A program made the position numbers and the translations under genes. From an uncultured Eubacteriales bacterium (GTDB taxonomy: Bacteria > Bacillota > Clostridia > Oscillospirales > CAG-382), in assembly GCA_934446675.1 (NCBI GenBank), contig CAKSEL010000007.1:445-64444 (forward strand): DNA of 64,000 nucleotides, written 5' to 3'. The notes under the pieces were generated by a model, which was not told the origin of the DNA, ran no database searches, and saw only the letters and a list, made by a program, of their open reading frames with translations. Shown piece after piece: positions 3,107 to 37,276 of the stretch (the stretch's first letter is position 1; each line of letters opens with the position of its first letter).

Positions 3107-3241
3107 GATGTTCTTATCTCCGTTTGTGGAATATAGTTATATGATTTGAAAAATAATTATATTTACTTTCAAAATTACGTGCTATATAATTATATTACAT
3201 TAAACTGTTTCCAAAGTCAAGCAGAAAAGGAGAACCGAGAA

Positions 3242-5602
3242 ATGAAAAAAGTATGTATTTCAAAAAACTGGCTGTTTTGCTCCCCCGACTTTAACGGCAC
3301 GTCAACCGTCGATCTGCCGCACGATTACTCCATAAAGCTTCCGCGCGACAAAAACGCGCCTGATCACGGTTCCAACGGTTTCTTCACCGGAACAAGCGGA
3401 GAATATACAAAATATATGACGTTTGACGACAGCGCGCATACAATTCTCGATATAGACGGCGCATATATGTGCGCGAGAATCAGCTTTAACGACAATCAGA
3501 CGGATATGCACCCCAACGGATATATGCCGTACCTCGTGGATATTTCCGACAGAGTACGCCCCGGAAGAAACAACAAGATCTCGATACACGTTACAAACGT
3601 TCAGCCCTCAACGCGCTGGTATTCGGGTTCGGGCGTTTACAGAGATGTGTTTATATGGACGGGCGGAAAAATAAGAATAGAGCCGTGGGATCTCTACGTC
3701 ACAACCGAAAGCATATCCGAAAAAAGTGCAAGAGTCGCGGTGCGCACCTGTATAAGCGCTGATTACGGCGCAAATATAAAGCTCGAATTTGACTTTGCCG
3801 ACAAAAACGGAAATACCGTTCTTTCAAAAACTCAGAATGTTGACGTTGCCGCAGGCAAAAATGATTTTGTGTTTGACTTTGACATCGGAAATCCCATGCT
3901 TTGGGACTGCGATAATCCAAACCTCTACACTCTCGGCGTAAAAATTTTTTCGTCTGACGTATGCGAGGACGAATTTACCTCTCGTTTCGGAATAAGAACG
4001 GTACAGACCGACGCCGAAAACGGTCTGCGCCTTAACGGAAAGTCCGTAAAGCTTCACGGCGGCTGCATACATCACGACCATGCCCTGCTCGGCAGCGCAG
4101 AATATCCGGCAGCCGTCAGAAGAAAGCTTGAAAAGCTGAAATCCGTCGGATTTGACTCGGTTCGCACGGCACACTGTCCTCCGTCGCTTACATTTCTCGA
4201 GCTTTGCGACGAAATGGGCATAATCGTAATGGACGAGGCGTTCGACGTGTGGAACAAGCCAAAAAAAATCATGGATTACAGCCTTTGGTTTGCCGATTGG
4301 TGGGAAAGGGATATAAGCTATATGGTAAAGCGCGACAGAAGCCACCCATGTGTATTCTCTTACTCTGCCGGAAACGAAATAATCGAATGCAACGGAAGTT
4401 CCGACGGTTACGTATGGGCGAAAAAGCTGGCTGACGAAATAAGAAAATACGATACGACGCGCCCCGTCACAAGCGCTGTATGCTGTATCCGCGACGAGCC
4501 GAATCCATATGCGCCCGACGATTATAAGCAGGATTACAAAAAGCTTGTAATGCTCGATTATCCGGATACAAACAGCTCATGGGACGAAAGAACCGAAAAA
4601 TACATGGATCCGTTGGACATTGTCGGGTACAATTATATGTTTGAAAGATATGCCAAAGATCGCGAAAAATATAAAGACCGTGTTATATGGGGTTCCGAAA
4701 CGCACGCGCTTTATTTCTATGATTCATGGAAAGCCGTAACGGAAAATCCTAACGTAATAGGCGACTTTACATGGACGGCATACGACAATCTCGGAGAAGC
4801 AGGAACAGGAAGATTCGGCTGGGGCGGCGACGGCGTTTATATCCGCGGAATTTCCATTGCGGACTATCCGTGGAGAGCCTGCTATCAGGGAGATTTTGAC
4901 CTTTGCGGAAACCGCAGACCGCAGTCTTATTTCAGAGAGGCAATCTGGAAGGACATGACAGCGCCGCACATTTTCACAACTCACCCAAAGCGCAACGGCG
5001 ACTGTTTTTCGGGTACGGTCTGGCACTGGTACGACGTTCACGAAACATGGACGTTTGACGAAGAATACATAGGACAGCCCGTAAAAACCGACGTATACAC
5101 AACAGCAGACGAAGTTGTATTCTATCTCGGCGAAAAGGAAGTCGCAAGAGCCGTTCCCGAAAAAGCCATAGCCACGGCATATATTCCGTATCAGCCCGTA
5201 AAACTGACTGCCGCCGCATACAGAAACGGCAAAGAGGAATGCAAATTTTCGCTTTGTCCCGTAAACAAGGCGCACGGGCTGACAATAACTCCCGACAAGG
5301 ATAGTATCAGAGCCGACAACCGCGATCTGTGCTACTTTGACATAAGCGTGACCGACAGAGACGGAAATCCCGTGACGGACGGAGAGCACGAGATCAGCGT
5401 TACGGTTTACGGTGCGGAACTCATAGGCGTGTACGGCGCAAATCCCTGCAACGAAGATATGTACGGAACGAACAAATGCCACACCTTTGAAGGAAAAGCG
5501 CTGGCGGTGGTAAAGGCGGCGTCGCCCGACTATGTAAGAGTTTTTGTAAGCTCGTGCGGACTTAACGGCGCGGTTGCTTTCATTCCCGCGATACAGCCTT
5601 AA
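3242..5602 (+). CDS. Glycoside hydrolase family 2 (beta-galactosidase/beta-glucuronidase-like)
   Basis: Start chosen at MKKVCISKNW, with AAGGAG ~9 nt upstream. GH2 blocks are VRTAHCPPS, MDEAFDVW and RDRSHPCVFSYSAGNEI. No signal peptide. Confidence 0.85.
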   Translation: MKKVCISKNWLFCSPDFNGTSTVDLPHDYSIKLPRDKNAPDHGSNGFFTGTSGEYTKYMTFDDSAHTILDIDGAYMCARISFNDNQTDMHPNGYMPYLVDISDRVRPGRNNKISIHVTNVQPSTRWYSGSGVYRDVFIWTGGKIRIEPWDLYVTTESISEKSARVAVRTCISADYGANIKLEFDFADKNGNTVLSKTQNVDVAAGKNDFVFDFDIGNPMLWDCDNPNLYTLGVKIFSSDVCEDEFTSRFGIRTVQTDAENGLRLNGKSVKLHGGCIHHDHALLGSAEYPAAVRRKLEKLKSVGFDSVRTAHCPPSLTFLELCDEMGIIVMDEAFDVWNKPKKIMDYSLWFADWWERDISYMVKRDRSHPCVFSYSAGNEIIECNGSSDGYVWAKKLADEIRKYDTTRPVTSAVCCIRDEPNPYAPDDYKQDYKKLVMLDYPDTNSSWDERTEKYMDPLDIVGYNYMFERYAKDREKYKDRVIWGSETHALYFYDSWKAVTENPNVIGDFTWTAYDNLGEAGTGRFGWGGDGVYIRGISIADYPWRACYQGDFDLCGNRRPQSYFREAIWKDMTAPHIFTTHPKRNGDCFSGTVWHWYDVHETWTFDEEYIGQPVKTDVYTTADEVVFYLGEKEVARAVPEKAIATAYIPYQPVKLTAAAYRNGKEECKFSLCPVNKAHGLTITPDKDSIRADNRDLCYFDISVTDRDGNPVTDGEHEISVTVYGAELIGVYGANPCNEDMYGTNKCHTFEGKALAVVKAASPDYVRVFVSSCGLNGAVAFIPAIQP

Positions 5603-6916: not shown

Positions 6917-7225
6917 ATGATAAAAGGCTGTACAAAAAGAGTGATAGTTGTAAAGGACGTAAGGAGCGATATATTTGAAGAGGCGTATTTTATTCTTCGT
7001 CCGTCGCAGCAAAGCAATGCCCCGGAGAAAAGCCGTAACGACATTCTCACCGAGGCAAACAGAATAGTATCAACTTGTGAGTGCGACGCGCCGAGAGGCA
7101 CGGTCGGAATATCCTGCAAAAAACAACAGAAATTCAAAATACGCGACTTTTTGTTTTTCACCTGCGGATTTGCTTTCGCAGCTGCGTGCTATGCGGCGGT
7201 ATGCGCGCTGGGTCTTGCACTTTGA
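6917..7225 (+). CDS. Small hypothetical protein with a C-terminal transmembrane helix
   Basis: 102 aa with GGAGG 6 nt upstream of the ATG. The N-terminal block KRVIVVKDVRSDIFEEAYFIL resembles a small conserved clostridial protein of unknown function. Hydrophobic C-terminus FLFFTCGFAFAAACYAAVCALGLAL. Confidence 0.5.
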   Translation: MIKGCTKRVIVVKDVRSDIFEEAYFILRPSQQSNAPEKSRNDILTEANRIVSTCECDAPRGTVGISCKKQQKFKIRDFLFFTCGFAFAAACYAAVCALGLAL

Positions 7226-7259
7226 AACAAATGTGTTTTTTTACACGGACGGCGAAACT

Positions 7260-10200
7260 TTACTTTGTCGTCTTTTGTTTTTTTGCCCTGCGTTTCTTCT
7301 TCAGGACTATCGCGATAACTGCCGCGATTATACCGAGAATACCGCCGCAGAGAACATATATAAGCGTTACCGACTTTGCGTCGCGCCAGCCGTATATTAT
7401 GCAGAAAGTTTCGGTCTTTCCCGACATTTCGGTAATGATATAACTTCCGCGGTTTTCGGATTTAAGGCGTTTCCACTTGCCGTCGTCAAGTTTCCAGACA
7501 GCGGCTTTCTTTTTGTCGGGATTGAGAATTCGCACCTGTGTTATATCGTTTTCGCCGAGGTCTGTTCCGAAAAGCTCGGCGTCAAGCACGACCGCGGTCT
7601 GTTTTGCATGGAGAGAGGCGGCAGGGCTTGTGTTGCCGAATTTTACGTTTATATAGGCTTTATCGGTAAACTTGCCCTCTGCGATTATCATGGGCAGCGT
7701 ATATCCGTCGAGAATTCCGCTTTCAATGGTTTCGATATACGGCAGATACAGCGCGTTTACCGTGACGTCGGCTCTTATATTATTGCAGTCGGATATATTT
7801 TCCCAGGAGCCGTAAAATCCGTCGCGTTCGGGCACTTCGGGTATTCTTTCTGCTTCAAGCGACGAGCCGTAATCGGCATAAAGCACATACAGCGTTTCGG
7901 GTTCGTCCTCATCGCCGTCGGTAAAGGTAATTTTAAGCTTTGAAAGCGCTTCGGGAGCGCCCTCGATCGAGCTTACCGCGTCAAATCCGACAGCCGTCGC
8001 GCGTCCCGTATAGCTTACGCCGTCTATCGCGCCCACTCCGCTGTCAACGTATATATTGTCCTTTATCTTTTCAAGGTCGCCGAAACCGCCTGCCACTGCG
8101 CCTGCCGCCTCATCAGAGCTGACTCTGCATACCGAAACGCAGCCCGTAAGCGTTTCTGCGCGTCCGGCAATGCCGCCTGCGTACTTTTCCGCGCTTACCG
8201 CGCACTTTGCATAGCTCTTTCTTACAGACGACGAGCTGAAACCGGCAACTCCTCCGGCATATTTTCCGGCGGTGCTTTCAACGTCGCCGAAACCGTAGCA
8301 GACATACACCGTTCCGAGGTTCATCCAGCCGACAATACCGCCTATGCAGTCCTTTTTGCCGGTTATCCTGCCGAAGTTCTCACATTCCTGAAGTATGGAC
8401 TTTGTACGGTAGGTAAAATTGAGAGTATCGGGCTTTTCTATATCGTCCTCGGGGTCAGACGTATATTCCACAGCCATAGAACCGGCAATACCGCCGACAT
8501 TTCTGTCTGCGTCGATTTTGCCGTAGTTGCGCGACGATTTTACCTTTCCTTCGCGTGTAGCCTCTATGTTTTCCTCCGACGCGTCCTCAAGATAATCGTC
8601 TAAATTATTGTTTCTGAGTTCGTCAACGGCGTCTTTGAGCACGTTATTAATAGAAGAAAAGCGGTCGTATATCTTTCTGAGATCGGCGTCTATGGTATCG
8701 GCTTTTCCCGAAAGTTTGCCGTTAATCGAGTCTATTTCCTTGCCTATCGACTCCATGGCGTCGAAGATATTGTCGCTTGAGGTTCGCGTTTCCTCGCTTA
8801 TCTTTACAAATTTGAAGTCCTTTTCGGAAAGGTCGGAGATAATATCTCCCGTCTTGTCAACGGCGTCGGAAAGAATATCGCTTGTTTCGGAGAGCTTGTC
8901 AAAAGCTGCGGAAAGATCGTCGCAGGCAGCGTTTATCTGATCTGCGGTTTCGTTTGCAAAGTCCTTGTACAGCGTTCTTTCCTCGTCTATGGCATCGGAC
9001 AGCGTATCGACCGCCGAATTCATCTTCTTCATTGCAAATGACAGCGATTTTGACGCGCTCTGCAATCTGTCCGTAAAGCTCTCAAACGAGTCTATATCGA
9101 ATTCCACGTTCTGCGACACCGTAAGCATTGCGTTCATAATGCCGTTCAGTGCGTCGCTCATGTCCGAAACCGAGCCTGCTATGTTTTTAAGGTACTTTGA
9201 CAGGCTCTTGTAGATAAGCAGCACTTCGTCTATGTTTTCGGGAGGAAGTTCATCCATTACGCCCTGAATTTTGTCGAGCGAATTTCCGAGCTTTGTATTT
9301 GCCTGCACAAGAAGCGCGAACGAATCCGCCATATCCTTGAACGCCGACTTTACTTTGCTCTTGTTCTTGATTACAAATGCGTCCTCAAGGTCGCTCATTG
9401 CAAGGGAAAGCTTGTCGAAAGCCGAGCTTAACGCGTCAACCGAGACCTGCATTTCGTCAACTCCGTCGCACAGCTTGTCGTAAGCCGCGTCAGAATCGGG
9501 AAGATTTATATCTATGTTGTCCACGGCTTTTTTCAGAAGATCCATGGATTCGGACAGTCCGTCAAAACCGTCCCTTATCTCGTCGGTCACGGGTTCGAGT
9601 TTGTCGAGTGTGTCGGACAGCGTATTGAAAATATCGTTTACGACGTCGATATTCTCGTCGGCAAAGTCCGTAACTCCGTCGGCAAGGTTTTCGGCATTTT
9701 TGCGCGCCTCATCTGTAAGACCGTTAATGCTGTCAACACTCTGTGAAATGTCGTCCGACGTTTCGGAGGCATGGTCTGTAAGGGTGTTCATCTCGCTGTT
9801 AAGTCCGTCAAGCTCGCGCTTTAATTTATCGAGTGCGCTTTCCGAAATAGACAGCACAATAAACGGTTCGGCCTGCCCGACAATACCGCCTACGTCTTTT
9901 CTTCCGTATATTCTGCCGTAGTTTGAGCAGTTTTCGATATATCCCGACTGACGTCCGGCAATACCGCCGATATTGTAGCCTATATGCTGATAACCCACAA
10001 CGGCATTGTTTCGGCAGTTGTTTATAGTTCCGTCGGAAAATCCCGCGATACCGCCGGCGTCCGAATGACCTGCGACTATTGATTCTTCATTCTGCTCGCG
10101 CGAAATGCGGAATTTTTCCAGAGCCGCGCTGAAATCCGTATCCAGTCCGTCAAGAGAGGTTGATGTGCTTTTCTCATACGAGTTTACGTCGCCGTTGTTT

Positions 10201-10829
10201 ATACAGCCGCTTATCGTACCGGAATTCTTGCCTGCGATACCGCCGGTATAACGCTTGCCCGAAATGCTTGCATACGACGTGCAGTTCCTTATATACGCGC
10301 CCTGTTTGTTTATTCCGGCAATACCGCCGATATAAAGGCTTCCCGAAAGAGTGCCCGTAAAGGTGCAGTCCGATATGGTGCCTTCGTTGCTTGCGGCAAT
10401 GCCTGCTATATAGTTATCCGTTCCCTTGGGACTTATATCTCCCGAAACGTTCAGATTCTTTATAACGCCGCTTTTAAGCACATATCTGAACAGAGCCTTA
10501 TATTCTCCGCCCGACGTTATTTTAAGTCCCTTTACGGTATGTCCCGCGCCGTCGAACACGCCCGAAAACGCAGGCACGCCCGAAAACGAGGTCTTTGAAA
10601 GGTCAATGTCGGCTTTCAGAACAAAGGTCTTGCCCGACGAATAGGTATCAAGCGTGCAGAGATCTGCAAATTCGAGAAAATCCTCGGTGCTCGAAATAAG
10701 ATACGTATTTTCCGCCGCGGCAGCCGATACATAAAGACCGGGAATATACGAAAGGCTCTGCAAAACCGGCGAAAACGCGCACATTAAACAAAGAACAAGG
10801 CTTATTATCTTTTTTGCCGTATTTTTCAT
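7260..10829 (-). CDS. Large surface protein: signal peptide, GLUG-motif repeats, ~430-aa acidic coiled-coil core, more GLUG repeats, B-repeat/Ig-like region, C-terminal TM anchor
   Basis: 1189 aa. Signal peptide MKNTAKKIISLVLCLMCAF. About 14 GGIAG/GGIVG-centred GLUG-type repeats. The central D/S/L-rich helical region resembles YhgE/Pip-type extracellular helical repeats. C-terminal TM LIYVLCGGILGIIAAVIAIVL is followed by KKKRRAKKQK. Its RBS (GGAGG) lies inside the last codons of the upstream MMPL gene. Confidence 0.8.
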   Translation of the reverse strand: MKNTAKKIISLVLCLMCAFSPVLQSLSYIPGLYVSAAAAENTYLISSTEDFLEFADLCTLDTYSSGKTFVLKADIDLSKTSFSGVPAFSGVFDGAGHTVKGLKITSGGEYKALFRYVLKSGVIKNLNVSGDISPKGTDNYIAGIAASNEGTISDCTFTGTLSGSLYIGGIAGINKQGAYIRNCTSYASISGKRYTGGIAGKNSGTISGCINNGDVNSYEKSTSTSLDGLDTDFSAALEKFRISREQNEESIVAGHSDAGGIAGFSDGTINNCRNNAVVGYQHIGYNIGGIAGRQSGYIENCSNYGRIYGRKDVGGIVGQAEPFIVLSISESALDKLKRELDGLNSEMNTLTDHASETSDDISQSVDSINGLTDEARKNAENLADGVTDFADENIDVVNDIFNTLSDTLDKLEPVTDEIRDGFDGLSESMDLLKKAVDNIDINLPDSDAAYDKLCDGVDEMQVSVDALSSAFDKLSLAMSDLEDAFVIKNKSKVKSAFKDMADSFALLVQANTKLGNSLDKIQGVMDELPPENIDEVLLIYKSLSKYLKNIAGSVSDMSDALNGIMNAMLTVSQNVEFDIDSFESFTDRLQSASKSLSFAMKKMNSAVDTLSDAIDEERTLYKDFANETADQINAACDDLSAAFDKLSETSDILSDAVDKTGDIISDLSEKDFKFVKISEETRTSSDNIFDAMESIGKEIDSINGKLSGKADTIDADLRKIYDRFSSINNVLKDAVDELRNNNLDDYLEDASEENIEATREGKVKSSRNYGKIDADRNVGGIAGSMAVEYTSDPEDDIEKPDTLNFTYRTKSILQECENFGRITGKKDCIGGIVGWMNLGTVYVCYGFGDVESTAGKYAGGVAGFSSSSVRKSYAKCAVSAEKYAGGIAGRAETLTGCVSVCRVSSDEAAGAVAGGFGDLEKIKDNIYVDSGVGAIDGVSYTGRATAVGFDAVSSIEGAPEALSKLKITFTDGDEDEPETLYVLYADYGSSLEAERIPEVPERDGFYGSWENISDCNNIRADVTVNALYLPYIETIESGILDGYTLPMIIAEGKFTDKAYINVKFGNTSPAASLHAKQTAVVLDAELFGTDLGENDITQVRILNPDKKKAAVWKLDDGKWKRLKSENRGSYIITEMSGKTETFCIIYGWRDAKSVTLIYVLCGGILGIIAAVIAIVLKKKRRAKKQKTTK

Positions 10830-10831
10830 GA

Positions 10832-13339
10832 TTATTTTACCTCCTCTTTGCTTTGCGGCGCGTCATTTTCGGCGTCGCTCTGTTTATCGGGACTGCCGTC
10901 ATCGGTCGTACCGCCGGTATTCTGCGTATCCGTACCGTTTTCCTTTACGCCGGACAGTTTTGCGTCTATCTCTCCGTTTACCGTACCGTAGAATATACCG
11001 TCAAGACGTCCGTTTACGTTTCCGTGGATTATTCCGTTTACGGCTGTTATGCCGCCTGTCGTAACGGTTCTTGTGCCTGCCTTGAATTTGAGCGAAGTCT
11101 TATCTATAATAAAGTCTCCGAGAAGCAGAAGCTGCGGAAGTATAAGCATTACGAGAACCATTGATATAAGAGTTCCGCGTCCTAAGCACGAACCTATGGA
11201 GCTTATTGCGGCGTCTGACGAAAGAAGTCCGATAAACGCGCCGGCGCAGGCAAGAATCGTACCCGATGTGAGTATTGTCGGGAACGCAAAGTTGAGAGAT
11301 TCGACAATAGCCTGCTTTTTGGGCATTGTCTGGCGGAATTCCGTATATCTGCTCGTAATTACTATCGCGTAGTCGATATTCGCGCCCATCTGAATAGAGC
11401 TTACAACCAGGTAGCTTAAGAAGAACAGCGGTTTGCTCTGAAGATATGGGAACGAGAAGTTTATCCATATACTTCCCTGAATTACAAGTATCAGTATAAC
11501 GGGAAGTCCTGCGGACTGGAACGTGAATAACAGTATTGCCATGACGAATACGACGGACAGCACGCTTATAAGCACATTATCCTGTCCGAAGGTGCTCGAA
11601 AGGTCAAAGTCGCTCGTAGAGTTTCCGGCAAGCACAACATCATCGCCGTAATATTTCTTTGCGGTATCTCTTACGGTGTCGAGAAAAGCAAATGTCTCCT
11701 CGCTCTCTTCCGGAATATTCAGGTCAAGCACAAGACGCGAATGTTTCGGACCTTTAAGCTGCTTTTTGCCGTCCTCAAGCTGTTCGTGAAGATCCTCAAG
11801 GTCGTCCATAAGATCGTCGTCAAGAGTTACGTACCCTTCGTCAACCTTATCATATACGAATGTAAACATATCTATAAGCGGAACGCCGTAGGAGTCTATT
11901 CCGCCGACTACCGCGCCGTAGTTTTCCGAATCGACGGCATATGCGGCATACAGAAAGTCAACGACTTCTATATCCATGTCTATAAGCTCAGAGAAATTTC
12001 TCGGCGTAAGCTTATCCGCAAGGCAGTATCCGTCTATCGCCTCGATATTTGCAATGCCCATTGCGGTGTCTATCTCGTCATAGGCTTCAAGCTCGGTAAG
12101 CAGAGCCTTTTCCTTTTCGTAATCTCCCGTCGGGACAAGAACCGCAAGCGTGTTTGAACTGCGGAAGGTATCGCGTATCATCTCGTCGGCGATCTGCGAA
12201 TCGTTCTTGGCTATTGTGGTAAGATTTGTGTAGCTGTACGCATACGGGCACATATTCGAGAAGAAAAATCCTGCGACTATAAGCACCGCAAATATCACGG
12301 GAGTTATGTATCTGAGCTTTACAACGATCTTGCCCCAGATATTTATTTTCGGAACAAAGTTTTTGTGGTGCGTCTTGTCTATAAGCGCCGAGAAGGACAT
12401 GAGAAGTCCCGGCATGAGCGTGAACACGCAGACAATGCTGAGCAGCACCGCCTTTATGAGTATGATACCCATATCATAGCCGAGTCTGAAATGCATGAAC
12501 ATCATTGCCGCAAGTCCCGAAAGCGTTGTAAGACAGCTGCCGGAGATTTCGGGTATCGCCTTTGAAAGCGCCGTGATAACAGCCTCTCTCGCGTTCATCT
12601 TTTCGCGTTCCTCGGTATATCTGTGGCAGAGTATTATCGCGTAGTCGATAGCAAGCGCAAGCTGGAGTATTACGGCTATCGAGTTTGATACGAACGATAT
12701 GGTTCCGAACATATAGTTTGTGCCTACGTTAAGCAGCGCCGCCATTCCGAAGGTCAGAAGCATTACCGGAATTTCCATATACGTCTGCGACGTAAAGAAC
12801 AGAACTATAAGTATAATAATTACGGTTATCACCATTACGACGTTTATCTCGTTCTGAATGGTGTTTGCCTTTGTGTCGCCAAGCTCTGCCGAAACGTAGG
12901 TGTCGTATCCCTCAAGTAGCTTTTGCGCGTTCTCAAGAGCCTCCGCGCTTATGGGATCGTCATCCTCGCCGTCAAAGGTCAGCGTAAACATCGCCGCGGA
13001 ATTTGCATAGTGCTTTTCGGTGTCGTCAAACGCAACCTCTTTTACGCCCTCGACGTCCTCAAGCCTGCTGCAAAGACTTTCCGCCGTATCGTAGGAAATG
13101 TTGTCCACCATTATCTGCGCCGTGGCATACGTCACAAATTCCTCGTCCATTATGGAAAGTCCTATGTGCGTTTCGGTGTCGTCGGCAAGATAGTCCGATA
13201 TGTCGTTGTTTACCTTTACCCAGCCGTTTGAAACAACGCTGAACACGGCAAGGCATATGTACACAAGATAAAACGCCTTTCGTTTGTCTACTATGAACGC
13301 CGCAGCCTTCTCCACCGGCGACGTCTTGTTATTTCCCAT
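10832..13339 (-). CDS. MMPL/RND-superfamily membrane transporter with a C-terminal bactofilin-like tail
   Basis: 835 aa with two 6-TM bundles separated by large extracytoplasmic domains, the typical firmicute MMPL layout. Its stop is 2 nt from the start of the GLUG gene. The last ~90 aa are not membrane-like. Confidence 0.85.
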   Translation of the reverse strand: MGNNKTSPVEKAAAFIVDKRKAFYLVYICLAVFSVVSNGWVKVNNDISDYLADDTETHIGLSIMDEEFVTYATAQIMVDNISYDTAESLCSRLEDVEGVKEVAFDDTEKHYANSAAMFTLTFDGEDDDPISAEALENAQKLLEGYDTYVSAELGDTKANTIQNEINVVMVITVIIILIVLFFTSQTYMEIPVMLLTFGMAALLNVGTNYMFGTISFVSNSIAVILQLALAIDYAIILCHRYTEEREKMNAREAVITALSKAIPEISGSCLTTLSGLAAMMFMHFRLGYDMGIILIKAVLLSIVCVFTLMPGLLMSFSALIDKTHHKNFVPKINIWGKIVVKLRYITPVIFAVLIVAGFFFSNMCPYAYSYTNLTTIAKNDSQIADEMIRDTFRSSNTLAVLVPTGDYEKEKALLTELEAYDEIDTAMGIANIEAIDGYCLADKLTPRNFSELIDMDIEVVDFLYAAYAVDSENYGAVVGGIDSYGVPLIDMFTFVYDKVDEGYVTLDDDLMDDLEDLHEQLEDGKKQLKGPKHSRLVLDLNIPEESEETFAFLDTVRDTAKKYYGDDVVLAGNSTSDFDLSSTFGQDNVLISVLSVVFVMAILLFTFQSAGLPVILILVIQGSIWINFSFPYLQSKPLFFLSYLVVSSIQMGANIDYAIVITSRYTEFRQTMPKKQAIVESLNFAFPTILTSGTILACAGAFIGLLSSDAAISSIGSCLGRGTLISMVLVMLILPQLLLLGDFIIDKTSLKFKAGTRTVTTGGITAVNGIIHGNVNGRLDGIFYGTVNGEIDAKLSGVKENGTDTQNTGGTTDDGSPDKQSDAENDAPQSKEEVK

Positions 13340-13383
13340 AATTTCACAACACTCCTCATCACAAAAATTTAACCGAAAAGATT

Positions 13384-13399
13384 ATTGACAAATGTCAAT
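13384..13399. promoter_or_regulatory. Candidate TetR operator (inverted repeat)
   Basis: ATTGACA-AA-TGTCAAT, 7-bp perfect arms. It overlaps the -35 of the tetR promoter and lies just downstream of the predicted MMPL-operon start site. Confidence 0.5.
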
Positions 13400-13413
13400 T
13401 AAAAGAATATAAT
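13385..13413 (+). promoter_or_regulatory. Sigma-70-type promoter of the TetR gene
   Basis: TTGACA (13385-13390), 17-nt spacer, TATAAT (13408-13413). Confidence 0.55.
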
Positions 13414-13415
13414 AT

Positions 13416-13444
13416 ATTATATCAGCAAAAGTACATCATTTCAA
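13416..13444 (-). promoter_or_regulatory. Sigma-70-type promoter of the MMPL/GLUG operon
   Basis: Minus strand: TTGAAA (13444-13439), 17-nt spacer, TATAAT (13421-13416). Its -10 abuts the tetR -10 within the palindromic TATAATATATTATA. Confidence 0.5.
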
Positions 13445-13507
13445 GACACAATTATTAAATTCACATTACAAATATGCAAAAATTATGATAATATGAAAGG
13501 CAGCACC

Positions 13508-14086
13508 ATGAATACAACAACCGACAGACGCGTCAGACGCACAAAAAAGCAGCTTACGGACAGTCTTGCAAAGCTGTTATGCGAAAAGCCGCTAAAGAAT
13601 ATAACGGTAAGAGAAATATCCGAGCTTGCGGATATAAGCCGCGGAACCTTCTATCTTCACTACCGCGACGTATACGATATGGTAGAACAGCTCCAGAACG
13701 AGATGTTTGAAAAGCTTAACGACATAATAGACGGCTGCGACAAAGAAGCGCCGGCGGAAAGGCTAAACAGCATATTAAAAGCCATGCTCGAGCTGCTTGA
13801 CGAAAACAGGGAGCTTTCAAAGTGCCTGCTCAGCAAAAACGGAGACGCCGTGTTTACCGACCGCGTAAAACAGCAGATACTCACGAGATGTTTCCAGCCG
13901 ATATACGACAACCGTTCGTTCAATCCCGCGATAGACTTCAAGTATTTTTCAAACTTTATAATTTCCGGCAGCGTCGGCGTTATAAGCGAATGGCTTGAAA
14001 CGGGCAGCCTTGACACTCCCGACGAAATTGCGGCGCTTCTCGAATCCCTCATCAAAAACGGGGCGTCGGCTCTTATAAATATGTAA
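13508..14086 (+). CDS. TetR/AcrR family transcriptional regulator
   Basis: Start at MNTTTDRR (GAAAGG 7 nt upstream). N-terminal HTH ITVREISELADISRGTFYLHY. Divergent from the MMPL gene. Confidence 0.9.
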   Translation: MNTTTDRRVRRTKKQLTDSLAKLLCEKPLKNITVREISELADISRGTFYLHYRDVYDMVEQLQNEMFEKLNDIIDGCDKEAPAERLNSILKAMLELLDENRELSKCLLSKNGDAVFTDRVKQQILTRCFQPIYDNRSFNPAIDFKYFSNFIISGSVGVISEWLETGSLDTPDEIAALLESLIKNGASALINM

Positions 14087-14259: not shown

Positions 14260-15609
14260 GTGAAAATATCAAAAAAGACATTGTGCCTGACAGCAGCCTT
14301 TGCAATAGCCGTTCTCACGGCGGCAGCCCAGTTTGCCTCGCTCTCTCCGGCAATAGACGTTATAAAGGACAGCATGGAACTTAAAAAATGCGGAGTTATA
14401 AACTGCGACGTAATGTTCTCGCAGAACGACTTTGACTCGTCGCTTACCGAAAAGGTCGAATACGTCACAATCTCGTCTCTGCCGGACAGCTCCGTCGGAA
14501 CTCTCTGCCTTAAAGACGTGCCGGTAATTCAAAACCAGACCGTCTCGCGCGAAAATCTCGGCGAACTGCGCTTTGTTCCTGCCAAAGATACCGCCGGAAA
14601 CACAAGTTTTAACTTTTCCGACGCACGCGACAGCAGCGTAAGCGCCGTATGCACGGTAAACGTGCTTGATGAAATTAATTTAAGCCCCGAAACCGCCGAC
14701 CAGACGCTTACAACGCAGAAAAACATTGCCGCGTTCAAGTTTCTGATGGCAGCCGATCCCGAAAACGACAGCATGACCTTTAACGTGGTAAGTTACCCGA
14801 AAAACGGCTTTGTCTCGCTTAAGGATTCTTCAAACGGCGGCTTTGAATACGTCCCGTCGGACGGATATATCGGCAAGGACAGCTTTGTATACACCGCGAC
14901 AGACGTATACGGCAACACCTCGTCTCCGGCAAAGGTCAGCATAGACGTAATAAAGCCCGCGTCGGACGTATACTTTGACGACATGAAAGACCACTGGGCG
15001 CACAACAGCGCCGTTGAAATGGCTGCAACCGGTCTTATGTGCGGCACGGACGAGGACGGAAAGCTCATGTTCTATCCCGAAAGCGGCATTTCGCGCGGAG
15101 ATTTTCTTGCAATATCGCTTATTATGGCAGGACGCGAAAACGATATACCAGAGGTGTCCGTCACAAGCTTTGCCGACGACGGCTCCATTCCGTCAAACAT
15201 CAAAAGCTACGCCGAATACGCGCTTAAAAACGGCATAATTTCGGGCTATACTTCACCCGACGGAATAAATTTCAAAAGTACCGAACCCATAACGCGCTCC
15301 CAGGCAGCCGTGATTGTGGATAAGCTGCTCTCGCTTCCCGAAATCTCCTCCGACAGCCGCGAATTCAGCGACGCGTCAGCCGTTCCCGACTGGGCAAACA
15401 GCTCTGTATGCTCTCTTGCCGCCTGCGGTATTCTCAACGGCAACGGCAGCGGAGAGATATCTCCCGAAAGCACTCTTACAAAGGGTCAGGCGGCTCAGAT
15501 GCTGTGCAATGTCTCGGATTATCTCGAAAGCCGCGAAAACGAACAGCGCGACAGTGAAAAAGACGCGCCCAAAAAGAATATTTTTAATCTGTTCGGACTT
15601 TTGGGATAA
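14260..15609 (+). CDS. Secreted protein with a cadherin-like/Ig-like repeat and C-terminal SLH domains
   Basis: GTG start and signal peptide KISKKTLCLTAAFAIAVLTAAA. The segment FNVVSYPKNGFVSLKDSSNGGFEYVPSDGYIGKDSFVYTATDVYGNTS is typical of cadherin-like/VCBS-type repeats. SLH-like repeats follow from FDDMKDHWAHNSAVEMA. Confidence 0.75.
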   Translation: MKISKKTLCLTAAFAIAVLTAAAQFASLSPAIDVIKDSMELKKCGVINCDVMFSQNDFDSSLTEKVEYVTISSLPDSSVGTLCLKDVPVIQNQTVSRENLGELRFVPAKDTAGNTSFNFSDARDSSVSAVCTVNVLDEINLSPETADQTLTTQKNIAAFKFLMAADPENDSMTFNVVSYPKNGFVSLKDSSNGGFEYVPSDGYIGKDSFVYTATDVYGNTSSPAKVSIDVIKPASDVYFDDMKDHWAHNSAVEMAATGLMCGTDEDGKLMFYPESGISRGDFLAISLIMAGRENDIPEVSVTSFADDGSIPSNIKSYAEYALKNGIISGYTSPDGINFKSTEPITRSQAAVIVDKLLSLPEISSDSREFSDASAVPDWANSSVCSLAACGILNGNGSGEISPESTLTKGQAAQMLCNVSDYLESRENEQRDSEKDAPKKNIFNLFGLLG

Positions 15610-15985: not shown

Positions 15986-17212
15986 TCATCTCAAACCGCA
16001 CATTTTTTTGACATCAGCAAGGCTCATATTGTTCTCTCTTGCAATACGTGCAAGATCCTCAAATTCGTACTTTTCTCTTGTAACGCCGAATCCCGACGAT
16101 ATCTTTTTACGCACTTGTCCGTATTCAGTCATTACCGAATCAAAAGAGCGTGAAAGGGTATATCTTCGGCTGATATTCTCCCTCACCCCGAGAGTTGTTG
16201 TATGCCTGAATATCAGACGTATTATTTCATCTTTATTCTTTTCACAGCACATAACCGTAAGCAGCGTTCCCGGTCTGGATTTCTTCATTTGCACCGGTGC
16301 CGTATATACTTCAACAGCTCCGGCAGCAAAGAAACGTTCTTGTGCAAATCCTATCGCCTCGGCAGTCATGTCATCAAGATTGCAGACAAGTTCAACGATT
16401 GTATCACTCTTTTCATTCGTCTCGCCAAGCAGTGCTCTTACGCAGTTTGCATTTTCAAAATCCTTTTTTCCCATACCGTAACCTATTGCCGACACTTTCA
16501 TTACCGGCATATCTCCAAAGTCCGACGCAAAATGTTTAAGCAGTGCGGTGCCGGTAGGAGTACACAGCTCACTTTTGATTTCGCCGCTGTAAAAAGGAAT
16601 GCCCTGCAGAATATATGCTGTTGCAGGTGCCGGAACCGGCAGAATTCCGTGGGCGCATTTTACCTGACCGCTGCCCGTATTTACAGGTGATACCACAACA
16701 TTCTCTGCGGACAGGTATTCCATTAACATACAAACCGCCGTTATATCCGCAACAGCGTCCATTGTCCCCACTTCGTGAAAATGTATCTGTGAGACGGGAA
16801 CGCCATGAACATGGCTTTCCGCCTGTGCGATAATTGAATAAACCGCCATAATATCGTTCTTTACCTTTTCCGACACATTCAGATTCTCAATAATGTGCTC
16901 TATCGCGTGCATACTGCTGTGGTGATGCGTATGTTCTTCACCATGCGAATGTATGTGGTCATGATGTAAGTGCTGACCGTTTTCATGCGAGTGCGGCATT
17001 TCCGATTCCACTTCTCCGCCGGCTTTTACCGTAATATGTGTGCCTTTGATTCCGCACTTTACCGAAGTTTCGCATATAAATTCAACTTCCGGAATACCGG
17101 CATGATTAAGCTTATCAACAAATTCCGCCTTGTCGGAAACAAGTTCAAGCAATGCCGCCGTAAGCATATCTCCGGCTGCTCCCATACCGCAGTCCAAATA
17201 TAGTGTTTTCAA
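15986..17212 (-). CDS. larC: Nickel-pincer cofactor biosynthesis protein LarC (nickel insertion, DUF111 family)
   Basis: 408 aa with a TTG start 1 nt after the larB stop. N-terminus MKTLYLDCGMGAAGDMLTAALLEL. His-rich metal segment HSHENGQHLHHDHIHSHGEEHTHHH. Confidence 0.9.
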   Translation of the reverse strand: MKTLYLDCGMGAAGDMLTAALLELVSDKAEFVDKLNHAGIPEVEFICETSVKCGIKGTHITVKAGGEVESEMPHSHENGQHLHHDHIHSHGEEHTHHHSSMHAIEHIIENLNVSEKVKNDIMAVYSIIAQAESHVHGVPVSQIHFHEVGTMDAVADITAVCMLMEYLSAENVVVSPVNTGSGQVKCAHGILPVPAPATAYILQGIPFYSGEIKSELCTPTGTALLKHFASDFGDMPVMKVSAIGYGMGKKDFENANCVRALLGETNEKSDTIVELVCNLDDMTAEAIGFAQERFFAAGAVEVYTAPVQMKKSRPGTLLTVMCCEKNKDEIIRLIFRHTTTLGVRENISRRYTLSRSFDSVMTEYGQVRKKISSGFGVTREKYEFEDLARIARENNMSLADVKKMCGLR

Positions 17213-17213
17213 T

Positions 17214-17966
17214 TTATTTTACCTCCATATGATTAATCATGCTTGCAAGATACCCTGCCCCGAATCCATTGTCGATATTGACCGCAGACACTCCGCTTGC
17301 ACAGGAATTCAGCATAGATAAAAGAGCGGATAGTCCGTTGAATGACGCACCGTATCCGACGCTTGTGGGAACTGCTATTACCGGACAGTCCGCAAGTCCT
17401 CCGATCACACTTGCAAGCGCGCCCTCCATTCCGGCTACGGCAATTATAACGCTTGCGCTCATTATTTCGTCAAGGTGTGACAGCAGCCTGTGCAGTCCGG
17501 CAACGCCGACATCATATAACCGCACAACTTCATTTCCGTGCACTTCCGCGGTAAGCGCAGCCTCCTCAGCCACCGGAATATCGCTTGTTCCGCCAGTTGC
17601 CACAACAATTTTACCGATCCCGTCAGCGTCCGGAATTTTCCCTATGATTCCGATTTTTGACTGTTCATGATAATCAATATCGTATCTTTCGGCTATTTTT
17701 TCGGCAGCTTCCGTATAAAGCCTTGTAACAAGTATGGTCTTCTGCCCGTTTTGCCTCATTTTTTCTATTATCCCTATTATCTGTTCCGGAGTTTTACCGG
17801 CTCCGTATATAACCTCCGGCATACCTTGACGAATATTGCGGTGCAAATCTATTTTAGCATAGCCTATGTCCTCAAACGGTTCTTTTTTCAAAGCCAATAC
17901 AGCGTCGTCAACCAAAATACTCCCGTCGCGTACTTTTTCCAATATTGTTTTTAAACCGGTCTTCAT
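17214..17966 (-). CDS. larB: Nickel-pincer cofactor biosynthesis protein LarB (PurE-like carboxylase/hydrolase)
   Basis: 250 aa. DLHRNIRQGMPEVIYGAGKTPEQI and a PurE-like C-terminal half. ATGA start/stop overlap with larE. Confidence 0.9.
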   Translation of the reverse strand: MKTGLKTILEKVRDGSILVDDAVLALKKEPFEDIGYAKIDLHRNIRQGMPEVIYGAGKTPEQIIGIIEKMRQNGQKTILVTRLYTEAAEKIAERYDIDYHEQSKIGIIGKIPDADGIGKIVVATGGTSDIPVAEEAALTAEVHGNEVVRLYDVGVAGLHRLLSHLDEIMSASVIIAVAGMEGALASVIGGLADCPVIAVPTSVGYGASFNGLSALLSMLNSCASGVSAVNIDNGFGAGYLASMINHMEVK

Positions 17967-18709
17967 TTGCGCACCTCCAAATCAAGCAGAACGCCGGAAT
18001 AATACTTTTTTAATTCCGAAATAATAATTTCACGCTTTTCGAGTACCTGTGCAAGCTGATCGGCAGGTACCTGTATTTTTGCTGAATTTCCCGTTTTTCT
18101 CACTCTGAAATTACTGAATCCGAGAGAAAACAAATAATTTTCCGCCATCTCCGTCGCTCTCAGTTTTTCCTCTGTAATACGTTCGCCTGCCGGAATACGG
18201 GTTGCAAGACAGGCATAGGCCGGCTTATTCCATGTGAACAGCCCGGCTTCTTTTGAAAGCCGGCGAATTTCGCTTTTTGTCAATCCGCACATACGCAGAG
18301 GAGAAAATACGGACAGTTCTTGCAAGGCTTTCATACCGGGACGGTCCTGCGCATCATCAGACGCATTTGTTCCGTCAAGCAAAACTGTAAATCCGTCATC
18401 TGCCGCCTGCTTTTTTATGGTTTCAAATATTGTTTTCTTGCAGTAGTAACAGCGATTGTTCGGGTTAGACGCTGTTTTTTCATCAGCAAGCACATCTATA
18501 TGCAGCGTTTTCATCTCCGCACCAACCTGTTTTGCCAAACGCACGGCGTCCTCGTATTCAAACTGCGGCTGAAAAGCCGATTTTGCATAATATGCGCACA
18601 CTTTTTCCGCATGGAGCTTTGCAAAATAGAAAAGATATGACGAATCGACGCCGCCGGAAAACGCGACCGCAACCTTTGTATGTTCCCTGAAAAAATCTTC
18701 TAAATTCAT
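17963..18709 (-). CDS. larE: ATP-dependent sacrificial sulfur transferase LarE (PP-loop ATPase)
   Basis: Start moved to MNLEDFF (AGGGG 7 nt upstream). PP-loop VAFSGGVDSS and CYYCK motif. Confidence 0.9.
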   Translation of the reverse strand: MNLEDFFREHTKVAVAFSGGVDSSYLFYFAKLHAEKVCAYYAKSAFQPQFEYEDAVRLAKQVGAEMKTLHIDVLADEKTASNPNNRCYYCKKTIFETIKKQAADDGFTVLLDGTNASDDAQDRPGMKALQELSVFSPLRMCGLTKSEIRRLSKEAGLFTWNKPAYACLATRIPAGERITEEKLRATEMAENYLFSLGFSNFRVRKTGNSAKIQVPADQLAQVLEKREIIISELKKYYSGVLLDLEVRK

Positions 18710-18725
18710 ATGATACCCCTGTATT

Positions 18726-18762
18726 AAAAACGGGCAGCTCCGCAAATCATACAGAGCAGCCC
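18726..18762 (-). terminator. Weak hairpin plus U5 between the small membrane-protein genes and larE (possible partial terminator)
   Basis: Minus strand: GGGCTGCTC...GAGCTGCCC (one mismatch) followed by gTTTTT, in the 62-nt gap before larE. Confidence 0.3.
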
Positions 18763-22830: not shown

Positions 22831-24198
22831 TTATAATCTCAGTGAAGTTTTAAAAGCGAAATCCGCATCTTTCACAAGCTCGTCATCATTAATGCCGCAT
22901 TTGACATTTTCGCACTCAATTTTTCCCTTGCTCCAAACTGTTATCAGGGAATCGCCGCCGTAATTTTCAACAACTACATTATTAAACGAGATCAAATCAT
23001 AGTTGCACGCATGCATAAAACAGTATTTTGCGGATTTTTCACGAAAACCGACCTTGGCATTATTTAATCTTACCGTAACCTTGTTTTCCGCGTCTCCGTA
23101 AACAACAAACGGCATAATTATTCCGGTTGCATTTATGTTTTTAAATGTAATGGAATCCAAAGGACGGTTCTGCTGCCAGATTTCACTGCCGGAATAATTA
23201 TAATACAAAAATCTGTCGGCATTTTCAATCGTGCAGTCCGATATGACAATATTGCCCGGACGGTGCTCTATATCCACCGAAAAATCCGAGTAATATGTAA
23301 ACACGCTCAGCATATTGTTGCGGTGTCCTTCGACGGTGGGTTTTATACCGTTCTTCTTCTCTTCCACGCTTAAGCTGCCGCGGAAAAGATACCTGCACGG
23401 TCCGTATATGTGACACTTTTCAACAAAAACATTTGTGCCGCCGAATCTCATTGCATTGCACGCGGAATTGAGTTCGCACCCCTTTACAAGCACATTTGTG
23501 TTGGCAAAGCCTGCGACGCAGTCATCTCCGGTATAAAACTTGCAGTCCGTTATTTTAACATTATTGCAAACCGTTATATGTATGCCGTCGTGTCCTGCCA
23601 ATACCGTAATGCCGTCTGCCGTAATGTTATCGCAGTAAAAAGCCGCCGTCGCCCAATTTGCGCTGTCTTTTATCGTATAGCCTTGCAGACGGATATTTTT
23701 ACAGTAAAACATATTAATACAGTGCGGTCCGCGGTAGTATTCTTCTCCGAGTTCGTCATAGCAGTCGCTTCCGTCAAGAACAGAGCCCTCGTCGCCGATG
23801 ATCGCAATATTTTCGGCATTTATCGCCCTTATAAGAGCATTATTCCATCTGCTGCCGGGAATACGCATAAACCGGTAATCCTTTACCTCGTCATATTCGG
23901 TTCGTTTCCAGGGTGCGTCGGTTACAAGCCCGGGCGCTAACGGCTCTGTTTTGTCATTTAAATATCCAAAATAATCTTCGGGATTCTTGCTGCCTTTCAA
24001 TACGGCATTTTTCAGCAAATGCAGCGTAACGTTGCTGCGGAGTCTGATTCCTCCCGTTAAGAATACTCCCTCCGGGATCTGTACTTCGCCGCCGCCCAAA
24101 TTAAAGCAATAATCAATCGCGTTCTGAATTTTTGCGGTCTGAAGTTCATTATTCCTTTCAGCGCCGAAATCACATATTGATACTATCGTTCCTGACAT
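22831..24198 (-). CDS. Right-handed beta-helix glycosidase, GH28-like (polygalacturonase/rhamnogalacturonase superfamily)
   Basis: 455 aa. The N-terminus ICDFGAERNNELQTAKIQNAIDYC...GGGEVQIPEGVFLTGGIRL is typical of GH28. HDGIH and TGDDCVAG blocks. No signal peptide. Confidence 0.7.
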   Translation of the reverse strand: MSGTIVSICDFGAERNNELQTAKIQNAIDYCFNLGGGEVQIPEGVFLTGGIRLRSNVTLHLLKNAVLKGSKNPEDYFGYLNDKTEPLAPGLVTDAPWKRTEYDEVKDYRFMRIPGSRWNNALIRAINAENIAIIGDEGSVLDGSDCYDELGEEYYRGPHCINMFYCKNIRLQGYTIKDSANWATAAFYCDNITADGITVLAGHDGIHITVCNNVKITDCKFYTGDDCVAGFANTNVLVKGCELNSACNAMRFGGTNVFVEKCHIYGPCRYLFRGSLSVEEKKNGIKPTVEGHRNNMLSVFTYYSDFSVDIEHRPGNIVISDCTIENADRFLYYNYSGSEIWQQNRPLDSITFKNINATGIIMPFVVYGDAENKVTVRLNNAKVGFREKSAKYCFMHACNYDLISFNNVVVENYGGDSLITVWSKGKIECENVKCGINDDELVKDADFAFKTSLRL

Positions 24199-34161: not shown

Positions 34162-34213
34162 ATACATATCTCCTTCATTGTAGTTGTTGACTTGCGATTT
34201 AGCACAAAAATTA

Positions 34214-37200: not shown

Positions 37201-37276
37201 CGACAGGCACGTAAAAACGTGACGGAAGCTTGCCCCGAAGCCGGTCAATTTTCTTTACATATTCTTCGCTAAACAT
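34214..37276 (-). CDS. Glycoside hydrolase family 38 alpha-mannosidase (cytoplasmic)
   Basis: 1020 aa. GH38 metal/catalytic block YAISHSHLDLEWLW, FNQFHDILPGSSI, and a full-length layout typical of bacterial GH38. No signal peptide. Confidence 0.9.
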   Translation of the reverse strand: MFSEEYVKKIDRLRGKLPSRFYVPVGTTEFEGFFTYDRLSYEDAVKHDRQKLPQGLRWGRKWEYGWFFTQITVPKECEGKRICFKADLVESTVYVNGRVVGALDHAHKEIMLSASAKAGETFDIAAEVYAGHGDEMIKDVMHYTALIPELNIKPFPEDVTQKCVSNGTYGIFRDDVFQLYVDIEVLVDLSKCQEETSLRRAKIEKAIRKIADFVDLELPYDEFAENVKQAREILKPLFDCHNGPTVPTMYAISHSHLDLEWLWTVNETTRKCARTIGNQLELINEFDDCKYIQSQAWILETVKNNYPELYERVKQAVKSGNIVVEGGMWVESDANIPAGESIIRQFVFGKKFMKNEFGVDSEILWLPDTFGISGAFPQILKGCGIKYFMSAKLMWLINGGDVFPYSMFNWKGNDGSEVLCNIIRGYANGTYPSQTKVHWGFNSERDNIPYRLYPYGFGDGGGGATRFYYEQLKREHDLEGMPKVIQASPNKFFHDVENECEIDKTYVGELYYALHRGTFTSQAKTKLLNRKCENELRDAELWSAFLRQDTKEKTDPLWKTVLFNQFHDILPGSSIAEVYERAESELSEVAEKAENITKDVLETVSETKDGVITVFNSLSWDRKAYIKLPEGYTSICASDGKAYECETDANGTFAAVDVPSCGYASFVLGKEKANAVSSGTKPILENDLVRAEFNENGELSSVVDKQTGIEFLSGRSNRLRMYEDQTAAHDAWDIDSIYQNNEVKLAEPAKIESIQSGTLASSLVIKREINNSTLVQKVTLRKGSRAIEFDTQIDWKERHKLLKVDFDTNFNTEELISETQYGFVKRPTHRNRKYDADRFEVCQHKWSALAESNRAAAILNNCKYGISADGGRMSLTLLKAPQNPALNADMGIQRFTYCFMPFCGTFYNSNIVNAAFELNCPVKVVPGYAGKQSALSISQPNVVLTAAKISEDGKGDIIIRLAEETNNYTMCSVKLGFAVKEAYLTNMLEEDAECVAVTDDTIKLNFRAFEVKTIRLKVKQ

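Follow-up and report, generated by a model that had tools for sequence, protein, structure and literature searches.

Does a very large GLUG-repeat surface protein work together with the transporter whose gene it follows, or do the two only share an operon? The question is raised by a locus on contig CAKSEL010000007.1 of an uncultured Eubacteriales bacterium, within a 64-kb stretch of DNA that was analyzed as a whole (termed the window below). Here, a TetR-family regulator gene is divergent from a gene pair encoding a transporter of the MMPL/resistance-nodulation-division (RND) superfamily and, immediately downstream, the GLUG protein (termed the partner). A previous interpretation made from the letters of the DNA, the sequence-only reading, had described these genes as a three-gene module and the GLUG protein as a dedicated partner of the transporter. 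All three open reading frames (ORFs) were recovered with the boundaries it had given them. Comparison of related loci strongly supports the dedicated partnership and leaves two genes, not three, as the conserved unit.

Related loci came from a genome scan, an alignment-based scan of metagenomes, and look-ups of exact proteins, which together gave 89 loci (L001-L089); three more (L090-L092) were kept outside this count. The genome scan with a single protein returned only 2 loci, as its patterns were too specific, and the alignment-based metagenome scan contributed the 80 loci used for statistics. The window locus shares 97% identity with a human-gut metagenome-assembled genome ('uncultured Clostridiales UMGS1387'). 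In 89 of 89 loci, an MMPL homologue (46-98% identity) was found directly upstream of the partner gene (29-97% identity for the partner) and on the same strand. The survey of adjacency that the sequence-only reading had called for thus showed the pairing to be conserved. Two homologues were looked up starting from the transporter, one from Flintibacter muris and one from an Oscillibacter; each has a partner downstream with an 8-nt overlap, and no partner lacking an MMPL gene was met among the loci examined. The genes flanking the pair differ from locus to locus, which argues that the pair moves as a unit.

The pair is spread across Clostridia, here chiefly from gut metagenomes, and its carriers among human-gut Clostridia include Oscillibacter, Flintibacter, Anaerotignum, and Monoglobus. 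A profile search with the partner returned 10,026 representatives at E ≤ 1e-30, a set that includes partial sequences and other GLUG-repeat proteins; the best 150 matches were full-length for the most part. The partner family comprised more than 5,000 matches at 90% clustering, with 3,668 members in one 90%-identity cluster.

The junction between the two genes is equally regular. Both features described for the window, i.e. a gap of 2 nt between MMPL stop and partner start and an internal GGAGG, are present. Among 70 distinct loci, 65 displayed a Shine-Dalgarno (SD) sequence together with a signal-peptide start at -125 to +16 of the MMPL stop; in 48 of these 65, the partner started within -20 to +2, and the most frequent arrangement was an overlap of 14 nt. 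The SD of the partner lies inside the MMPL coding sequence in the window and family-wide. Most MMPL homologues end in a tail of 17-26 amino acids (aa) with the pattern 'GG..DEK/EE', the codons of which carry the downstream SD. The gene layout, with overlapping or abutting genes throughout the family, fits the suggested translational coupling between MMPL stop and partner start. Such coupling would favor matched amounts of both proteins.

Two natural in-frame MMPL::partner fusions were detected, P0101 (1912 aa) and P0117 (1885 aa), the former on four contigs from NCBI and ENA assemblies. The joint leads from just past the last transmembrane (TM) helix of the transporter, TM12, into the signal peptide of the partner ('...DKTSFSIKN-MRRAGAGAMAAVMAVGLVPTVRA|EDG...'), and the fusions keep a segment equivalent to the signal peptide with a VRA|ED site. 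Since the MMPL C-terminus is cytoplasmic, the fused signal peptide would either serve as an extra TM helix or be cleaved at this site. In-frame fusions are classic evidence for a physical or functional complex. Together, the invariable adjacency, the overlapping or abutting genes, and the two fusions strongly support the claim that the large GLUG protein is dedicated to the MMPL transporter as its partner, and they point to a probable physical complex of the two. Within the same set of relatives, the top MMPL matches reached 62-69% identity and those of the partner 36-41%, as expected for a membrane core and an exposed subunit.

What kind of transporter is involved? The protein matches the Pfam family MMPL (PF03176) with E = 3.8e-41 and 141.6 bits (cut-off 20.5) in two stretches that correspond to both of its halves, and hence belongs to this family. 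Hydropathy peaks at residues 23-43, 165-183, 213-238, 290-308, 338-356, 589-630, 685-712, and 727-745, separated by hydrophilic extracytoplasmic loops at ~44-160 and ~366-588, are in agreement with a 12-TM topology in a simple Kyte-Doolittle scan that does not resolve every helix. An Asp-Tyr (DY) pair in 'IDYAIILCHRY' could be aligned with 'TDYGIFIIGRY' of MmpL4, and a second pair in 'NIDYAIVITSRY' with 'GSDYNLLLVSRF' of the same protein. The transporter thus retains both Asp-Tyr pairs, in the equivalents of TM4 and TM10, which we take from published MmpL3 work to be the proton relay. Substrate export driven by the proton motive force (PMF) is proposed for it. The nearest solved structures by sequence were MmpL4/5 (E = 1.9e-11), MmpL3, and HpnN. 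The best NCBIfam match was the HAE3 model TIGR00921 (E = 5.6e-37), at 127.2 bits against a cut-off of 351.9 and thus outside this subfamily; the actII-type MMPL and HpnN models were also near, and a weaker likeness to the sterol transporter BstA was seen.

The transporter of the window ends in a longer cytoplasmic tail (residues ~744-835, 10832-11110) with GxVxG-type repeats (GGITAVNGIIHGNVNGRLDGIFYGTVNGEIDAKLSG) and an acidic end, which appears bactofilin-like to the eye and for which no Pfam family was found. As the tail is short or absent in most homologues, it was rejected as a conserved part of the system.

The partner was modeled with AlphaFold2 (AF2) from 55 homologues at a mean predicted local distance difference test (pLDDT) score of 75.4; the resulting domains are listed in Table 1. 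Signal peptide, single C-terminal TM helix, and poly-basic tail had all been anticipated from the sequence and are confirmed by model and hydropathy. A Pfam match to Glug (PF07581; 34.7 bits, cut-off 20.5) and the modeled beta-helix place the protein among the GLUG family. Two GLUG parts were found, as had been described, with five strict GG[IV]xG motifs in each part; the counts given before, 'about 9' and 'about 5' repeats, are approximate. Because the beta-helix resumes behind the helical domain (762-930), the latter is an insertion. When modeled alone from 118 sequences, this domain retained its helices unchanged (pLDDT 76.8, predicted template-modeling score 0.63). The composition of residues 328-760, with an isoelectric point of 4.09, a net charge of -55, and 15% D, 11.5% S, and 10% L, agrees with the model in confirming the acidic, D/S/L-rich helical core of ~430 aa noticed earlier.

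The helical domain is the least conserved segment of the partner. Its length is nonetheless quantized across the homologues P0092-P0476, with a main class of ~425 aa, a common one of ~340 aa, and rarer ones of ~193, 485, 568, 686, and 1078 aa. The common step of ~85 aa corresponds to one hairpin, i.e. two helices of ~42 residues. Quantized steps and model therefore argue for an antiparallel bundle or array of hairpins, built from helices of ~40 residues, better than for one long coiled coil, and the earlier label 'coiled coil' was abandoned. Invariant residues cluster in the beta-helix: (i) GRKDxGGIxGQxEP (309-322) marks the entry to the helical domain, (ii) invariant residues of a DxS...GK segment (749-762) mark its exit, and (iii) a loop at 789-807 (consensus 'KDPEDDIEKPDxLNFTYRTK') is conserved yet of low confidence in the AF2 model. 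This loop is a candidate interface. For the membrane-proximal region, described as 'B-repeat/Ig-like', the AF2 beta-sandwich bears out the second half of the name, whereas 'B-repeat' lacks Pfam support: no Pfam family was found in this region, and a faint Flg_new match occurred in homologue P0094.

Table 1. Positions of the genes, partner domains, and control and junction elements in the window
Feature	Position	Strand	Basis or remarks
TetR-family regulator gene	13493-14086	+	197 aa; alternative start Met6 at 13508
Candidate TetR operator, perfect 7-2-7 palindrome ATTGACA-AA-TGTCAAT	13384-13399	.	pattern and conserved block
Putative tetR promoter, sigma-70-like TTGACA-17-TATAAT, 12/12	13385-13413	+	consensus scan, pattern match only
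MMPL operon promoter-like site TTGAAA-17-TGnTATAAT, 11/12	13416-13444	-	consensus scan
MMPL/RND-superfamily transporter gene	10832-13339	-	835 aa
GGAGG Shine-Dalgarno of partner gene	10840-10844	-	within last MMPL codons, 10 nt from ATG
MMPL stop TAA	10834-10832	-	followed by 'tc', then partner ATG at 10829
GLUG partner protein gene	7260-10829	-	1189 aa
Partner, signal peptide and linker, residues 1-39, MKNTAKKIISLVLCLMCAFSPVLQ...SAAAAEN	10713-10829	-	hydropathy peak 8-26; helix 4-25, then low-pLDDT linker
Partner, N-terminal GLUG beta-helix (right-handed), residues 40-327	9849-10712	-	AF2 pLDDT >90; Glug PF07581
Partner, acidic helical domain, residues 328-760	8550-9848	-	AF2, nine helices 331-733, mostly ~40 residues each
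Partner, C-terminal GLUG beta-helix part, residues 761-930	8040-8549	-	AF2 strands from 762, pLDDT >90
Partner, membrane-proximal beta-sandwich (Ig-like) domains, residues 931-1150	7380-8039	-	AF2 strands 944-1147, pLDDT ~75-90
Partner, C-terminal TM and polybasic cytoplasmic tail KKKRRAKKQK, residues 1151-1189, stop	7260-7379	-	helix 1152-1184; hydropathy 2.77 at 1157-1175

The regulator belongs to the TetR family by its N-terminal helix-turn-helix (TetR_N, 25.2 bits, cut-off 24) and its helical C-terminal ligand domain (TetR_C_8, 61.7 bits, cut-off 26.1). Its divergent position and the perfect palindrome in the shared control region are present as the sequence-only reading had claimed. The palindrome is unique in the window, even when two mismatches are allowed, and lies in the AT-rich spacer of 153 bp between tetR and the MMPL gene. 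Perfect inverted repeats (arms of at least 7 nt, gap of at most 4) arose in 13% of dinucleotide shuffles of this spacer and in 1.6% when at least two G/C were required per arm. Given these chance levels, the palindrome by itself is no more than suggestive. Its case is strengthened by conservation of the block in L003, L005, and L010, where divergent TetR orthologues (46-52% identity) occupy the same position: these loci keep TTTAAT-NNAACA-YTTGTCAAT after paired TATAAT/ATTATA boxes (boxes less exact in L010), and the better conserved half-site is the one that doubles as the tetR -35 element. This element sits inside the palindrome, which itself falls at ~+10 to +25 of the MMPL transcript, and the two divergent -10 boxes are only 2 bp apart; the predicted transcription starts are near 13409 (-) and 13420 (+). 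With this layout, a single operator could serve to repress both promoters under autoregulation, with TetR probably binding the palindrome and responding to an inducing ligand.

A divergent TetR gene upstream of the pair was detected by tblastn in only ~12 of the 89 loci. The conserved core therefore consists of two genes, and the TetR gene, part of the module in the window, is a clade-specific add-on outside it. Elsewhere, L007 carries a two-component system downstream in place of TetR, and no regulator was found near the pair in L008 and L091. In L092 (Oscillibacter), a TetR_C_8 gene lies downstream in convergent orientation beside a DegV-family gene (10887-12390). DegV proteins bind fatty acids, and these neighbors give a weak hint of fatty-acid-related regulation.

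The full TetR/MMPL/partner arrangement was also found in the cultured Monoglobus pectinilyticus (L090, NZ_OY725729.1 3684-10530), the 1179-aa partner of which is labeled 'hypothetical protein' in RefSeq. This locus lies on a 37.7-kb 'non-mobilizable plasmid' ('plasmid 5') with phospho-sugar mutase and rubredoxin genes near the module; since these genes are of a housekeeping type, 'plasmid 5' may be a chromosome fragment. We also noted an ORF of ~100 aa between the divergent TetR and MMPL genes in L006 (3061-3384), L022, L023 (two copies), L026, and L027. It carries the motif 'YxVTLHSPMGPREGRLxL', has no signal peptide, TM helix, or Pfam family, and is absent from the window. Possibly, it is a fourth component in more distant clades.

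How might transporter and partner work together? We consider it moderately probable that the pair forms a two-part exporter, driven by the PMF, for a lipophilic substrate, in which the partner is the extracytoplasmic scaffold or acceptor, and that it is switched by TetR in the lineage of the window. The transporter would be made together with one single-pass dedicated partner. The ectodomain of the latter, a rigid GLUG beta-helix bearing an acidic multi-helix bundle and tethered by the beta-sandwich and the C-terminal TM helix, would stand outside the membrane beside both extracytoplasmic domains of MMPL. MMPL would take its cargo out of the membrane: a lipophilic or amphiphilic molecule, which may be an envelope lipid or glycolipid or else a toxic amphiphile, for instance a fatty acid or bile acid. 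This molecule would then be handed to, or moved along, the partner, which would serve as an acceptor, a scaffold, or a conduit leading into the cell wall, so that the partner would play the role of MmpS and of the coiled-coil domain in mycobacterial MmpL4/5 on one separate polypeptide. In this lineage, the divergent TetR would repress the operon at the palindrome, over the tetR -35 element and the early MMPL transcript, and would be released by a ligand, as in FarR/FarE. Both the substrate class and the role of the partner are proposals.

Several observations weigh against this proposal. The transporter does not reach the curated cut-off of any named NCBIfam subfamily. For the helical domain, Foldseek gave no significant structural relative (best E 7.3e-4, TM-scores of 0.20-0.29, root-mean-square deviation ~40 Å), and the domain shows no obvious hydrophobic or Met-rich lumen signature, a point that was not rigorously tested; its low conservation would suit a spacer or an exposed surface just as well as a conduit. 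Moreover, TetR is missing from most loci. A role in inducible efflux can therefore not be generalized, and the pair may serve a housekeeping function in most species; constitutive export of envelope lipids is an equally allowed role outside this lineage.

A more far-reaching version can be offered only tentatively. The pair would then represent an unrecognized class of bipartite RND export apparatus in monoderms, the partner supplying the functions of MmpS and of the MmpL4/5 tube in trans as a wall-penetrating conduit. Partners would assemble around an MMPL oligomer, and the number of hairpins, in steps of ~85 aa, would set the size of the conduit.

In an alternative reading, no small molecule is moved to the partner. 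SecDF is an RND-superfamily member that pulls on polypeptides, and MMPL might in a similar manner use the proton gradient for conformational work on the partner, extending, inserting, or remodeling its beta-helix/helical ectodomain within the wall, in the service of adhesion, wall remodeling, or sensing. The 1:1 pairing, the fusions, and the retained proton relay would suit such a motor, as would a large ectodomain with a conserved and predicted-flexible loop (789-807) and the invariant GRKDxGGIxGQxEP at the hinge to the helical domain. We nevertheless think this unlikely, since the sequence likeness is to MmpL, HpnN, and HAE3 and not to SecDF, and TetR control beside a transporter usually indicates small-molecule efflux. 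Characterized MMPL-family proteins, moreover, export lipids, siderophores, or drugs (PMC12501195; PMC6463170).

That the partner is co-expressed with an efflux pump and otherwise independent of it, as a surface adhesin or glycan-binding beta-helix, appears quite improbable. GLUG beta-helices do occur in many surface proteins (109,400 matches to the partner profile at the looser E ≤ 1e-3), the ectodomain evolves fast, and many SLH-anchored surface proteins and glycoside hydrolases are encoded in the window. Chance sharing of an operon, however, would hardly preserve adjacency in all 89 loci across deep divergence and between unrelated flanks, nor would it account for overlapping start and stop codons, independent in-frame fusions, and the failure to meet any locus with the partner only.

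A resemblance of the helical core to YhgE/Pip, as proposed in the sequence-only reading, which would make the ectodomain a Pip/EsaA-type needle for phage adsorption or type VII-like secretion, is very improbable: it has in its favor only the general look of a membrane protein whose ectodomain is long, acidic, and helical and weak compositional matches to coiled-coil tails (ZorA, Mce C-termini, MakA), whereas Pfam and NCBIfam searches at E ≤ 0.1 gave no match to a YhgE/Pip model (with no positive control that these libraries contain such models), the 50 best Foldseek matches listed for each of the two models include no structure of the YhgE/EsaA type, PADLOC matches were confined to coiled-coil tails, and the topology, a signal peptide with one C-terminal TM helix versus multi-pass flanking domains, is different. 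The sequence-only reading had named this outcome as one that would refute it, but only the analogy falls with this test; the module stands.

Further candidate relatives of the partner were rejected as well. In the Foldseek search of the whole partner against the PDB, no match reached E < 1e-3, and the helical domain searched alone gave marginal helical-bundle matches with TM-scores of at most 0.29. No query-normalized TM-score of 0.3 was obtained in the fold searches, and target-normalized scores exceeded this value only for the designed bundle 8r5s (0.43-0.50). Homology to alpha-pore-forming toxins, TTYH, chemoreceptors, EsaA, and Mce was dismissed accordingly. For the ClyA-family alpha-pore-forming toxins (AhlB/SmhB/MakA/Hbl), TM-scores stayed below 0.5 and the MakA profile gave 18.4 bits versus 320. 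For the Mce 'needle' domains, the scores were 38.2 bits versus 140.5 (TIGR00996) and 20.6 versus 32.6 (PF11887), a likeness at the compositional or coiled-coil level. Matches to SMC, DUF948, and MCP profiles were sub-threshold or compositional, as is typical of helical repeats, and a PDB sequence-profile search returned only myosin, SMC, MCP, spike, and designed coiled coils, again compositional. Among PADLOC anti-phage systems, only coiled-coil-tail matches to ZorA and JetC were seen for the partner, and none for MMPL and TetR. The Pfam scan yielded no match of the partner to MmpS, and the partner is not an MmpS member; HlyD/MFP adaptor families gave no match in the Pfam and NCBIfam profile scans.

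Outside the three genes, a hairpin at 7247-7273 overlaps the partner stop codon and is followed by a T-run on the plus strand; it looks like the terminator of a plus-strand transcript. An ORF at 6917-7225 has no Pfam family, and no convincing minus-strand intrinsic terminator was found after the partner gene. At 15986-18745, on the minus strand, three adjacent genes match Ni_insertion (PF01969, E = 1e-137), AIRC, and a PP-loop ATPase, a set that resembles LarC/LarB/LarE for the nickel-pincer cofactor of lactate racemase. Genes for surface proteins with SLH domains and for glycoside hydrolases (GH) lie at 1008-2201, 14260-15609, 29062-34167, 3146-5602, 22831-24198, 34214-37276, and 48141-49970. 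The glycan-enzyme families in the window comprise GH2, GH28, GH38, and GH127, and a WbsX-like domain occurs on a 1701-aa SLH protein. This gene content indicates an S-layer-anchored, glycan-degrading lifestyle. No Pfam family was found for a 923-aa ORF at 26103-28874.

The MMPL/partner pair is an uncharacterized, abundant type of putative RND/MMPL exporter with a novel obligatory accessory subunit. It bears on the question of how hydrophobic molecules leave the membrane of a monoderm cell and cross its thick wall; if the conduit version is true, no dedicated conduit subunit on the extracytoplasmic side would have been described before for an RND transporter of Firmicutes. Since the family is common in human-gut Clostridia, its substrate could bear on bile-acid or fatty-acid tolerance, envelope lipid export, and colonization. 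The natural fusions and strict synteny make the complex directly testable, and cultured carriers exist in Monoglobus pectinilyticus and Flintibacter muris.

How does the pair compare with known systems? RND/MMPL transporters of Firmicutes are poorly understood, with few exceptions such as FarE, and to our knowledge no dedicated extracytoplasmic partner has been described for them. The literature yielded no paper joining GLUG with MMPL, the papers on the GLUG motif or domain being unrelated, and neither a paper nor a solved structure was found for the pairing, in keeping with the earlier statement that no characterized system has this composition. By profile, the closest families are HAE3 (TIGR00921) and HpnN (TIGR03480), at scores of 127 versus 351.9 and 69 versus 752; a GLUG or helical partner is not mentioned in their names and descriptions. 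In Gram-negative tripartite RND pumps, membrane fusion protein (MFP) adaptors are dedicated extracytoplasmic subunits that combine alpha-helical hairpins with beta domains and work with the pump (PMC4446572, PMC8277102). The analogy is functional only, as the partner differs from these adaptors in fold, size, and anchoring and has no outer-membrane factor.

In regulatory layout, the window matches Staphylococcus aureus, where FarR (TetR) is divergent from the RND/MMPL-type fatty-acid pump FarE (PMC10019231). The likeness is one of layout, taken from the published description, and it hints that, in this lineage, the operon may be induced in response to a membrane-active compound. FarE, in contrast, is described without a giant partner protein, and TetR is optional in the MMPL/partner family.

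The nearest functional parallel is the mycobacterial MmpS-MmpL4/5 system for siderophore and bedaquiline efflux, which likewise has an MMPL-family RND transporter with conserved DY pairs; the transporter of the window is far below the MmpL3 equivalog-domain cut-off. Efflux by MmpL5 needs the operon-encoded MmpS5, with a single TM helix and an Ig-like domain, and an extracytoplasmic alpha-helical element that was proposed to form a tube (PMC12501195). Again, the analogy concerns function only. The partner is large (~1189 aa) where MmpS is small, its TM helix is C-terminal instead of N-terminal, its gene lies downstream and not upstream of the mmpL gene, and it adds a GLUG beta-helix. The host is a Firmicute of the class Clostridia with SLH-type surface proteins and no mycomembrane, unlike mycobacteria. 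Finally, the helical element, which in MmpL4/5 is inserted in PD2 of the transporter itself, is here carried by the partner.

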